Positions 40,328 through 44,469 of a DNA stretch of 64,000 bases are shown piece by piece (the first letter of the stretch is position 1; each line of letters starts with the position of its first letter). Location: the sequence record OM632671.1; one strand, written 5' to 3'. This stretch comes from Escherichia phage BEU50. The notes beneath the pieces were generated by a model. The model worked only from the letters and a program-made list of their open reading frames with translations. It had not been told where the DNA came from and searched no databases. The translations under genes were made by a program, and so were the position numbers.

Positions 40328-40362
40328 ATTAATTGGGAGCTTCGGCTCCCACTGAGGAAATT

Positions 40363-40977
40363 ATGTTTAAAGTTAATACTTTTTATAAAATGAATTTTAA
40401 AAATGGGGATATTACTCCACGCCTTAAAAACATGTTCTCATATGACCTTATCGAGCCTTTTGAAGTTTTAGAAGTTACTGATGCCGGCTCGGTTTGTGAA
40501 ATTAGAACTTCTGAAGGTAAAATTTATCAGGCAGGTGTTGGTAAATTCAGTAATTGTTTTTCTTTAATATTCTCGACCGATTTAGATGAGCATTTTATTG
40601 AATGTCCTAACCCTAAGGTCTATGAAGTTCCACATCAAGAAACTAAGAAAAATGGACCGCACGAATATACGAAGGTTGAAACTCCTCACGGCGTGATGTG
40701 GCGACATAACTCTCCTTTTGGAAGTAAAGGAACATTTGCTCAACTGGCTAAGCCCTACGACGATGAAAAATATGTAGTAGTCCTTTTATCTGAACAGGGT
40801 ACTCAAGACCGTGGATGCCAGCGTTCCGGTTTATTGAGTGAACTCGAAGCTCATAACCTAGCACGTGAATTCGTTGAGAAAAATCCTGGTTCTGAAGCTC
40901 TAGTCATGAAAGCAATTACTCAATATATCACTGCTCAACCTGTTGTTCATCCGGTAGAAATTAATTTCATTAAGTAG
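40363..40977 (+). CDS. hypothetical protein (about 204 aa)
   Basis: ORF-track frame 40333..40977 trimmed to ATG behind GAGGAAA. Confidence 0.5.
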   Translation: MFKVNTFYKMNFKNGDITPRLKNMFSYDLIEPFEVLEVTDAGSVCEIRTSEGKIYQAGVGKFSNCFSLIFSTDLDEHFIECPNPKVYEVPHQETKKNGPHEYTKVETPHGVMWRHNSPFGSKGTFAQLAKPYDDEKYVVVLLSEQGTQDRGCQRSGLLSELEAHNLAREFVEKNPGSEALVMKAITQYITAQPVVHPVEINFIK

Positions 40978-41031: not shown

Positions 41032-41229
41032 ATGAAATTTTTAATAGCACAAACAGTCCAATTAAAAGGTGTTGGAATCCCTGGGATGATTTTTAAAGTT
41101 CTCAACGAATTTAAAACTGCCGCTGGAATTATCAATGAAGCGTATGCTGTTCAATGGGTTGATGGGACTTCTGACATACGTATGGGTAAAGAGTTATCTC
41201 CTATTAAAGGGTTGAAACATGTTGAATAA
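41032..41229 (+). CDS. hypothetical protein (65 aa)
   Basis: ORF track. Confidence 0.45.
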   Translation: MKFLIAQTVQLKGVGIPGMIFKVLNEFKTAAGIINEAYAVQWVDGTSDIRMGKELSPIKGLKHVE

Positions 41230-41437
41230 ATTAATCCAGAAATTGTTTGGTACGGAAATGATTGAAGTTACTTATCGTGTAACCGACGTTTTTCCATATT
41301 ACGCGGAAAACCGTTTAGAACCATACGTTACGTCAATTAAAATGCCTAAAAATGACAGAAATTTATCTATCGAAGACCGTATACCTGGATACGGACATTG
41401 GGCTGATGTTGAAATTATAAGTGTTAAAGATGTCTGA
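41219..41437 (+). CDS. hypothetical protein (72 aa)
   Basis: ORF track. Confidence 0.45.
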   Translation: MLNKLIQKLFGTEMIEVTYRVTDVFPYYAENRLEPYVTSIKMPKNDRNLSIEDRIPGYGHWADVEIISVKDV

Positions 41438-41888
41438 ATTAGAAATAAGAAGTAATTTCAAATGGCCGTCATGTGCATTAAGTAACTTTGCTCAATGGCC
41501 TTTTGTTATGGATGGTATTCAATTCGGAGGTCTTGAAGGATTTCTCCAAGGATGTAAGGTGAAAAATGTTGAACAACAAAGACGTATATTTGGGTTGTCT
41601 GGATTGGCTGCACAGCAAGCTGGAAGGTCTTACGCAAGAGCTCAGGACCGTGGGACTCTCTTCTGGTTCGGAGTTCCATTTTCAAGATACTCCGAAGCGT
41701 GGAAAGAATTATACACAAATGCATATTTTGAAGCCGCGATCCAAAACAAGGGGTTTCGTGATGCCTTACAAGCCTCTAAAGGAAAAATTTTGAAGCACAG
41801 CATGGCCAGCCACCTAACAAAAGATGATACAATACTAACTGAAGATGAATTTATTGACGTGTTAAACCTATTAAGAGACTCTTTATGA
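41421..41888 (+). CDS. NADAR-domain protein (YbiA-like, ADP-ribose-processing family)
   Basis: LSNFAQWPFVMDGIQFGGLEGFLQGCK parallels YbiA FSNFAAWPIKVDG...E.YFQAQK signature. Confidence 0.6.
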   Translation: MLKMSELEIRSNFKWPSCALSNFAQWPFVMDGIQFGGLEGFLQGCKVKNVEQQRRIFGLSGLAAQQAGRSYARAQDRGTLFWFGVPFSRYSEAWKELYTNAYFEAAIQNKGFRDALQASKGKILKHSMASHLTKDDTILTEDEFIDVLNLLRDSL

Positions 41889-42700
41889 AGCCTACTATTT
41901 TGACTGATATTGATGGTGTATGTTTAAGCTGGCAATCTGGACTTCCTTATTTTGCCCAAAAATATAACCTTCCATTAGAACATATTTTAAAAATGATTCA
42001 GGACGAAAAATTTATTTCTCCTGGTAAACTGTTCAATACCGACGATAACCTTGGTAAACAATTAATAGAAAAATATAATAGCTCTGATTTTATTCGTTAC
42101 TTAGCGCCTTATTCTGATGCTCTTCGAGTTATCAATAAACTAAAAGAAGACTATAATTTTGTAGCCGTGACGGCGCTAGGTGATTCAATTGATGCTCGAT
42201 TGAATAGACAATTTAATTTGAATGCTTTGTTCCCAGGCGCTTTCTCTGAAGTAATGATGTGTGGTCATGATTCTTCAAAGGAACAATTATTCGAACTAGC
42301 TAAAACAAAATATAACGTAATTTGTTACGTTGACGATTTAGCTCATCATTGTGACCATGCGGCAGAAATTCTTAATGTACCGATTTATTGGTTGGCTCGT
42401 GGTGAACGTGATGCCATTCCTCGTACTGCACAACGTGTACACACGTGGGATGATATTGAATCTCGTTTGGTTCTGCCTAAGAATAATTCAGATTCAGATC
42501 GTGAAGACCTTTTAAAACGATTGGCGGATTTGCTTAAAGAATCTGGTGCAACAAGTCCAGGTGCATGGCCTAATCAAATTGGCGCTCCGTCGAATCCGTA
42601 TACCTGGCGAACCCTAGGACCAACCGATATGCAGCCATGGTGGACGATTCAAAACTTTCCTTTAGATTCGTCTAAATGGACTTGGTCTATAAATTGTTAA
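41885..42700 (+). CDS. HAD-superfamily hydrolase (putative nucleotidase/phosphatase)
   Basis: N-terminal HAD motif I LTDIDGV; 271 aa. Confidence 0.55.
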   Translation: MKPTILTDIDGVCLSWQSGLPYFAQKYNLPLEHILKMIQDEKFISPGKLFNTDDNLGKQLIEKYNSSDFIRYLAPYSDALRVINKLKEDYNFVAVTALGDSIDARLNRQFNLNALFPGAFSEVMMCGHDSSKEQLFELAKTKYNVICYVDDLAHHCDHAAEILNVPIYWLARGERDAIPRTAQRVHTWDDIESRLVLPKNNSDSDREDLLKRLADLLKESGATSPGAWPNQIGAPSNPYTWRTLGPTDMQPWWTIQNFPLDSSKWTWSINC

Positions 42701-42709
42701 GGGATAATT

Positions 42710-42979
42710 ATGTTTGTAGTTCATGATATTACAGATGGCAAAAACACCACACGTGACTACGGTCATGTTAACATGTTCTTTCGAGACTGGCCATTGTTTC
42801 GTTCAGTAAAAGACGCAGAAATATTTAAAGAGTGTGTTGAACAAGGGTTCATCTACATTTCAGAATATTATGTTGAAGGTCTCGGTAAATGGATTACAAC
42901 TTATCAGAAAACGCTGAAATCGCTTCTAGATGAAGTGGCTTATAATAGAACCGTAACCAAAATCGAGGACATCAAATGA
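42710..42979 (+). CDS. hypothetical protein (89 aa)
   Basis: ORF track. Confidence 0.5.
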   Translation: MFVVHDITDGKNTTRDYGHVNMFFRDWPLFRSVKDAEIFKECVEQGFIYISEYYVEGLGKWITTYQKTLKSLLDEVAYNRTVTKIEDIK

Positions 42980-44469
42980 TTTTAGATATTTTAAACCAAA
43001 TAGCTGCGATCGGTTCTACTAAAACAAAACAAGAAATCCTTAAGAAAAATAAGGACAACAAATTACTTGAACGTGTGTATCGTTTAACATATGCACGTGG
43101 TATCCAGTATTATATTAAGAAATGGCCAGGACCAGGTGAAAGGTCCCAAGCATATGGTCTTCTTGAATTAGATGACATGTTGGATTTTATTGAGTTCACA
43201 TTAGCCACTCGTAAACTCACCGGTAATGCCGCAATTAAAGAGCTCATGGGTTATATCGCTGACGGTAAACCTGATGATGTAGAAGTCCTTCGTCGTGTAA
43301 TGATGCGCGACCTTGAAGTAGGTGCTTCAGTGTCTATCGCGAATAAGGTGTGGCCTGGACTTATTCAATTGCAACCACAGATGTTAGCATCTGCATATGA
43401 TGAGAAATTGATTACTAAAAATATTAAATGGCCTGCATTTGCTCAATTAAAAGCCGATGGTGCTCGTTGTTTCGCTGAAGTTCGCGATGATGGTGTTCAA
43501 TTCTTTTCTCGTGCTGGTAATGAATACCATGGTCTTACCCTATTAGCAGATGAATTAATGGAAATGACTAAAGAAGCTCGTGAAAGACATCCTAATGGGG
43601 TTTTAATCGACGGTGAATTAGTTTACCATTCATTTGATATTAAAAAGGCTGTGAGCTCAGGAAATGACCTGTCGTTCTTATTTGGTGATAATGAAGAATC
43701 CGAAGAAGTACAAGTTGCGGACCGTAGCACTTCAAACGGTTTAGCAAATAAATCTCTTCAAGGGACTATTTCTCCTAAAGAAGCTGAAGGTATGGTTCTT
43801 CAAGCCTGGGACTATGTTCCTTTAGATGAAGTCTATTCTGATGGCAAAATTAAAGGTCAGAAATACGATGTTCGTTTTGCTGCTCTTGAAAATATGGCTG
43901 AAGGCTTTAAACGAATTGAGCCAATTGAAAATCAGTTAGTTCGTAATCTTGACGAAGCTAAAGTGGTTTATAAAAAATATGTTGACCAAGGTCTTGAAGG
44001 TATTATCCTTAAAAACCGTGATTCATATTGGGAAAACAAACGTTCTAAGAACCTAATTAAATTTAAAGAAGTTATTGATATCGCTTTAGAAGTTGTAGGA
44101 TACTATGAACACTCTAAAGACCCTAACAAATTAGGTGGTGTCGAACTCGTATCACGTTGTCGTCGTATTACAACCGATTGTGGTTCAGGGTTTAAAGATA
44201 CAACTCATAAAACAGTTGATGGTGTAAAGGTTCTTATTCCTTTAGATGAGCGACATGATTTGGACCGTGAACGATTAATGACCGAAGCTCGTGAAGGTAA
44301 ATTGATTGGACGTATTGCTGATTGTGAATGCAATGGTTGGGTTCATTCTAAAGGACGTGAAGGCACTGTAGGTATTTTCCTCCCAATTATTAAAGGGTTC
44401 CGTTTTGATAAAACAGAAGCGGATTCGTTTGAAGACGTATTTGGACCACGGTCCCAGACAGGTTTATAA
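42976..44469 (+). CDS. 30: ATP-dependent DNA ligase
   Basis: 497 aa; ligase adenylation motif region KADGARC; T4 DNA ligase family. Confidence 0.92.
   Translation: MILDILNQIAAIGSTKTKQEILKKNKDNKLLERVYRLTYARGIQYYIKKWPGPGERSQAYGLLELDDMLDFIEFTLATRKLTGNAAIKELMGYIADGKPDDVEVLRRVMMRDLEVGASVSIANKVWPGLIQLQPQMLASAYDEKLITKNIKWPAFAQLKADGARCFAEVRDDGVQFFSRAGNEYHGLTLLADELMEMTKEARERHPNGVLIDGELVYHSFDIKKAVSSGNDLSFLFGDNEESEEVQVADRSTSNGLANKSLQGTISPKEAEGMVLQAWDYVPLDEVYSDGKIKGQKYDVRFAALENMAEGFKRIEPIENQLVRNLDEAKVVYKKYVDQGLEGIILKNRDSYWENKRSKNLIKFKEVIDIALEVVGYYEHSKDPNKLGGVELVSRCRRITTDCGSGFKDTTHKTVDGVKVLIPLDERHDLDRERLMTEAREGKLIGRIADCECNGWVHSKGREGTVGIFLPIIKGFRFDKTEADSFEDVFGPRSQTGL

Follow-up and report, generated by a model that had tools for sequence, protein, structure and literature searches.

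The adfN gene of an RB69-like phage: an ortholog of T4 gene 30.3 with a predicted role in countering DarTG1

The adfN reading frame and its T4 counterpart

In the 64,000-nucleotide stretch of DNA from Escherichia phage BEU50 analysed here (OM632671.1; hereafter the window), a plus-strand open reading frame closes at the TGA codon at 41886-41888. The original prediction had placed its start at 41421, which is the first in-frame GTG returned by a mechanical ORF call. We replace this by the ATG at 41430, which is almost certainly the biological start and yields a protein of 152 amino acids (41430-41888, plus strand, stop codon included), because T4 gp30.3 and the annotated coding sequence of phage mogra begin at the equivalent ATG, because residues 1-152 of the window protein pair with residues 1-152 of T4 gp30.3 without gaps, because the published numbering of E36 and K43 lands on a glutamate and a lysine only when counted from there, and because the preceding gene, 30.4, has its stop overlapping this ATG (ATGTCTGA). 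Counted in the same way, the segment that had been quoted in the original prediction, LSNFAQWPFVMDGIQFGGLEGFLQGCK, corresponds to residues 17-43 (41478-41558). We refer to the gene as adfN, for anti-DarT factor NADAR, and to its product, a NADAR-fold protein and predicted DNA ADP-ribosylglycohydrolase, as AdfN.

Over 152 of 152 residues, the window protein is 95% identical to T4 gp30.3 in a gapless alignment (E = 4e-112). The seven differences (K11R, F80L, E89P, I120V, M125I, H128G and D139A, window residue first) are conservative or surface substitutions, and none of them falls in an invariant column. Many sequenced T-even phages match the surrounding 3.6 kb at 98.4-98.7% identity, with 98.6-98.7% for Mosigvirus genomes; mogra, the best-annotated of these near-identical phages, is classified in Mosigvirus, the genus of RB69. 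The adfN gene of the window is an ortholog of T4 gene 30.3, residing in an RB69-like (Mosigvirus) genome. Its identity and family assignment were already known, the mechanism and the family having been published between 2023 and 2025.

Gene neighbourhood and the stand-alone behaviour of adfN

The genes around adfN follow the T4 order, with 31, rIII, 30.9, 30.8 and 30.7 on one side of a variable slot and 30.5, 30.4, 30.3, 30.2, 30.1, 30 (ligase), alt.1 and alt on the other, and the same order is found in T4, RB69 and mogra. Immediately upstream lies the ortholog of gene 30.4 (41219-41437, plus strand; phrog_2042, E = 2.4e-35), the last 8 nt of which are also the first 8 of adfN, and immediately downstream the ortholog of gene 30.2 (41885-42700, plus strand), with its start and the adfN stop sharing the sequence ATGA. 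Further along the same strand follow gene 30, encoding the ATP-dependent DNA ligase (42976-44469; PF01068, E = 1.9e-26, and synteny with T4), and alt, encoding a phage ADP-ribosyltransferase (44713-46800; PF03496, E = 6e-28, and synteny with T4, RB69 and mogra). There is little space between these same-strand genes, and 30.1 overlaps the ligase gene by 4 nt. No terminator-like site was predicted on the plus strand between 40357 and 46800, and the counts from the promoter and terminator scan were no different from those in shuffled sequences; we therefore make no statement on transcription units beyond the presence of same-strand, overlapping genes. The operon that had been proposed to end at DNA ligase does not match this arrangement, as the same-strand array continues beyond the ligase gene with alt.1 and alt. 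One early-gene block hence encodes both a writer of ADP-ribose marks, Alt, which acts on proteins, and an eraser, the NADAR protein, for DNA; co-expression of NADARs and ADP-ribosyltransferases in T4-like phages has been remarked upon before (PMC9503650).

In place of the 95-aa T4 gene 30.6, the window has a plus-strand ORF of 204-214 amino acids between 30.7 and 30.5 (40333-40977, with a probable ATG at 40363). Pfam, NCBIfam and PADLOC gave no match to it, its annotation in mogra is hypothetical, and of the 80 viral loci described below it turned up in only one (L005); it resembles an accessory gene specific to the lineage, placed in a hypervariable slot.

Because T4 AdfN is reported to need a T-even factor, we looked for candidate partner genes by running tblastn with ten neighbours from the window against 80 viral 30.3 loci, consisting of 14 close T-even loci and 66 distant ones (37-48% identity), and by clustering all flanking ORFs. 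The whole gene block is conserved in the 14 close loci. Only 8-9 of the 66 distant loci have 30.2 and the ligase gene near 30.3, the two co-occurring with each other rather than with 30.3, and apart from them no ORF family recurs beside 30.3. AdfN behaves as a stand-alone gene, while 30.2 tracks the ligase, which argues against a dedicated partnership between 30.2 and AdfN. One apparent partner, an ORF 'cluster' present at 19 loci, proved to be an artefact caused by an antisense ORF inside 30.3 itself.

A further ORF lies within adfN in another frame: an ATG-initiated stretch of 75 amino acids (41566-41793, plus strand) that is the counterpart of T4 gene 30.3', annotated there as 'internal translation, in a different reading frame'. 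Of the 14 close T-even loci, 12 retain this frame open, and none of the 66 distant loci does; its conservation may be a mere by-product of the nucleotide identity of the host gene.

The product of gene 30.2 had been described as a HAD hydrolase. All database matches bearing on this label are sub-threshold: the window protein reaches the Pfam HAD_2 family at E = 0.013, below the cutoff; a Pfam scan of every member of a 13-member 30.2 alignment yielded nothing further except NT5C in two relatives (E = 0.075); a single-sequence search of the PDB returned a 5'(3')-deoxyribonucleotidase at E = 0.11; and a profile of the 13 homologs found nothing significant in the PDB. A single-sequence AlphaFold model was unusable (pLDDT 37). 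What speaks for HAD membership is the set of invariant residues D8xD10, T96, K132 and D150/D151, which fit HAD motifs I-IV and weakly suggest that 30.2 is a HAD-like protein and putative phosphatase. From about residue 200, gp30.2 carries a C-terminal tail of roughly 70 residues (42485-42700) rich in W, P, N and T. Both the length and the sequence of this tail are hypervariable among close T-even phages; the distant homologs lack it and end at about 205-212 amino acids.

Family, fold and catalytic residues

The window protein matches the Pfam family PF08010 (Phage_30_3) along its entire length (E = 5e-69; 231 bits against a gathering cutoff of 36; profile positions 1-138 of 138), which places it in the gp30.3/AdfN subfamily. 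This family is entered in PHROGs as being of unknown function. PF08719, the Pfam model for NADAR, gave no match to the window protein even at E <= 1, and searches with the single protein in the PDB, NCBIfam and PADLOC found nothing. The 'NADAR signature' named in the original prediction is therefore a remote similarity, and the link surfaces only through profiles or structure. When 61 full-length homologs were scanned singly, 24 matched PF08719, the best at E = 1.5e-7, so that an HMM check against NADAR/DUF1768 of the kind that had been proposed fails for the window protein itself and succeeds for these relatives. Several of 82 database homologs are named 'YbiA (DUF1768 family)' by JGI, and one carries both Pfam matches.

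A profile built from the 61 sequences had a single meaningful match in the PDB, E. coli YbiA (2b3w, E = 0.0095), located on the LSNF...E..Q..K motif, and hhalign aligned the family profile with E. coli YbiA over 91 columns at 93% probability (E = 3e-7). The AlphaFold2 model computed from the alignment is of high confidence (pLDDT 93.3, pTM 0.88) and shows the characteristic alpha+beta NADAR fold, as judged by structure comparison including Foldseek, at about 20% identity to the YbiA-subfamily structures 2b3w and 8bau. It agrees, as an independent reconstruction, with the structural part of the published work on T4 AdfN (PMC11825919). The window protein has a NADAR fold, and the initial assignment to this superfamily, made from the letters of the sequence, is borne out by profile and fold comparison and by the presence of Glu36 and Lys43.

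These two residues belong to the N-terminal NADAR motif, LSNF...E36-G-F-L-Q40-x-x-K43 (41478-41558, plus strand), which both hmmsearch and hhalign align with FSNF...E48..Q52..K55 of YbiA, E36, Q40 and K43 pairing with E48, Q52 and K55 in the hhalign alignment. Neither the 61 homologs nor the 80 viral loci show any variation at L17, S18, N19, F20, E36, G37, Q40 or K43. Glu36 (codon GAA, 41535-41537) is the catalytic glutamate and Lys43 (codon AAG, 41556-41558) the catalytic or ADP-ribose-contacting lysine; the corresponding E36A and K43A variants of T4 AdfN are defective (PMC11825919). An absence of the conserved catalytic residues, which had been named as the outcome that would speak against a NADAR protein, is not what the alignments show.

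The third position of interest is His123 (codon CAC, 41796-41798), which stands opposite the catalytic Glu125 of YbiA-type NADARs. The hhalign block ends by pairing K122 with V124 of YbiA, and H123 therefore falls on E125. All 61 homologs have this histidine, as do 80 of 80 viral loci covering the position, the latter having been fetched independently of the 61-homolog alignment. Replacement of the catalytic Glu/Asp by His has been described for phage NADARs (PMC11543638; also PMC11125620), and a histidine at the catalytic-acid position of the last strand is the signature of the gp30.3 subfamily. To call the window protein 'YbiA-like' is thus appropriate as far as the NADAR fold is concerned, but not in the strict sense, since His123 marks the phage gp30.3 subfamily.

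The protein ends in a C-terminal alpha-helix (residues 138-152; 41841-41885, plus strand), which spans residues 138-151 in the model and is intact in the window, and which AdfN proteins need for full activity. The sensitivity of RB69 to DarTG1 has been traced to an inserted T at gene position 411, which removes the last 15 residues and with them the terminal helix, and C-terminal truncation lowers AdfN activity (PMC11825919). In our DNA alignment, the RB69 allele (NC_004928, 8222-8681, minus strand) carries this extra T, which neither the window nor T4 has, and translates only as far as residue 137. The other close relatives examined, including the window, have a full-length 30.3, and RB69 appears to be the exception within its own genus. 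Further candidates for RB69-type truncation, suggested by tblastn matches spanning residues 1-144 only, were rejected: the locus in question (L008) translates to full length, and the short matches reflect alignment trimming.

Probable function and alternative readings

NADARs have been shown to cleave ADP-ribose from guanine and to serve as antitoxins of DarT1 (Schuller et al., PMC11543638). For T4, the purified gp30.3 removes ADP-ribose from guanine, but not from thymidine (Toxins 2024, PMC11125620), and the DarTG1 resistance of T-even phages was mapped to gene 30.3, which was then renamed adfN (Johannesman et al., PMC11825919). In the latter work, deletion of adfN rendered T4 and T2 sensitive to DarTG1, ectopic adfN rescued RB69, and purified T4 AdfN de-ADP-ribosylated DNA (PMC11825919). 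The published work describes T4 gp30.3 as a guanine-specific DNA ADP-ribosylglycohydrolase that is both needed and sufficient for overcoming DarTG1 (PMC11825919, PMC11125620, PMC11543638). T4 AdfN did not, however, rescue uninfected E. coli from DarT1 toxicity and rescued non-T-even phages only partly (PMC11825919, PMC11125620), so that the mechanism in vivo needs something in addition; T4-type AdfN is reported to be fully effective only during T-even infection, with a T-even factor being required.

By extension from T4, the following course of events would apply to the window phage. Upon infection of a DarTG1 host, the DarT1 toxin would ADP-ribosylate guanines in the phage DNA and block its replication. 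AdfN, acting as a small, stand-alone N-glycosidase of the NADAR fold, would then hydrolyse the N-glycosidic bond between guanine and ADP-ribose, restoring the base and releasing free ADP-ribose, and the phage could replicate; AdfN would in effect be an 'orphan antitoxin' taken over from the DarG1 half of the system. We regard it as highly probable that the window gene is the T4 30.3/adfN ortholog and encodes a NADAR-fold N-glycosidase that counters DarTG1 by de-ADP-ribosylating guanine. Orthology, the NADAR fold, Glu36, Lys43 and His123, and the intact C-terminal helix come from the present analysis, while enzymatic activity, guanine specificity and DarTG1 counter-defence are taken from the published, 95%-identical T4 protein. 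It is through this T4 protein, too, that the original proposal of a NADAR-type counter-defence by removal of ADP-ribose from DNA gains its support (PMC11825919, PMC11125620, PMC11543638). Because of the 95% identity to T4 and the fact that no invariant column is changed, we infer that the AdfN allele of the window is active.

Other roles can be weighed against the same evidence. Before the experiments on T4-type proteins, phage NADARs in general had been proposed to act not on DNA adducts but on soluble ADP-ribose derivatives, degrading for example immune signalling nucleotides or by-products of RNA repair (PMC9503650). As the main role of AdfN, this would suit a stand-alone early NADAR gene close to phage ADP-ribosyltransferases, and no neighbour is conserved across the 66 distant loci, so that the gene context does not fix the substrate; we nevertheless consider it unlikely, given that the T4 ortholog de-ADP-ribosylates DNA in vitro and that its genetics are specific to DarTG1 (PMC11825919, PMC11125620). 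It is very unlikely, moreover, that AdfN serves mainly for self-protection by erasing off-target ADP-ribosylation of nucleic acids by the phage's own ADP-ribosyltransferases Alt, ModA and ModB. Although alt follows 2.8 kb downstream as part of the same-strand array, with ModA and ModB encoded elsewhere, an alt homolog is found within 5 kb of 30.3 in only 3 of the 66 distant loci, and the phenotype of the T4 adfN deletion was reported specifically on DarTG1 hosts (PMC11825919).

The fold and the N-terminal motif, which AdfN has in common with E. coli YbiA, would also be compatible with a YbiA-type housekeeping N-glycosidase that detoxifies intermediates of the riboflavin pathway or salvages nucleotides. 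We give this reading next to no credence, as the subfamily-defining E125 is an invariant histidine here, the neighbourhood holds no riboflavin or NAD-salvage genes, and YbiA itself, in the published assay, confers no protection from DarT1 in vivo, whereas AdfN does so during T-even infection (PMC11125620, PMC11825919). The nucleotide-salvage role that had been offered as an alternative to counter-defence found no support for the same reasons of sequence and context. Two further readings, which start from the reported need of T4-type AdfN for a T-even factor, we likewise think improbable: the translationally coupled gene 30.2 would cooperate with AdfN, for example in converting a phosphoribosyl remnant or the ADP-ribose set free, or AdfN would have a second substrate, for instance RNA bearing ADP-ribose or an adduct that occurs only in modified hmC DNA; with regard to cooperation, 30.2 lies beside 30.3 in only 8 of the 66 distant loci and follows the ligase.

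Returning to AdfN as a counter-defence enzyme acting on DNA, two consequences arise. The window gene should be labelled adfN, DNA ADP-ribosylglycohydrolase, anti-DarTG1 factor; nearly all database records examined still list adfN homologs as 'hypothetical protein'. For phage biology and phage therapy, the intact adfN predicts that the RB69-like phage of the window, unlike RB69, escapes DarTG1: if the allele is active, this Mosigvirus should form plaques on DarTG1 hosts.

AdfN among known NADAR proteins

The closest counterpart of the window protein is AdfN of T4 (gp30.3, PF08010), with which it shares the flanking genes, E36, K43 and H123, the intact C-terminal helix and 95% identity. The two differ by the seven substitutions and by their genomes, that of the window belonging to Mosigvirus, the RB69 group, and the T4-type protein to Tequatrovirus. 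In the RB69 type strain, by contrast, the allele is frameshifted and weakened, while that of the window is free of the insertion.

The YbiA subfamily of PF08719, represented by E. coli YbiA (2b3w) and a Phytophthora NADAR (8bau), is set apart by its conserved last-strand glutamate, E125 in YbiA, at the place of which the window protein has His123. E. coli YbiA, a bacterial N-glycosidase encoded in an SOS-linked locus, has been assigned to the riboflavin pathway. The AdfN proteins of Bas32 and Bas60 are, like T4 AdfN, phage-borne NADARs that counter DarTG1 (PMC11825919). They belong to other NADAR clades, were acquired independently and are active without T-even infection (PMC11825919), a distinction that we draw from their published description.

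The NADARs associated with DarG1/DarT1 (BC4488 subfamily; Geobacter lovleyi NADAR, PDB 8bat) differ from the window protein in several respects. They are encoded next to a DarT toxin gene, whereas the neighbours of adfN are 30.4 and 30.2, with no ADP-ribosyltransferase domain adjacent; they have a catalytic Asp, where the window protein has His123; and the DarG1 type comprises 219 residues with an N-terminal extension, compared to 152 residues without one. DarG1 also differs in its effect, since the T4 protein fails to neutralise DarT1 in uninfected cells (PMC11825919, PMC11125620). By analogy, the window protein would work like a DarG1 antitoxin, but it is not one.
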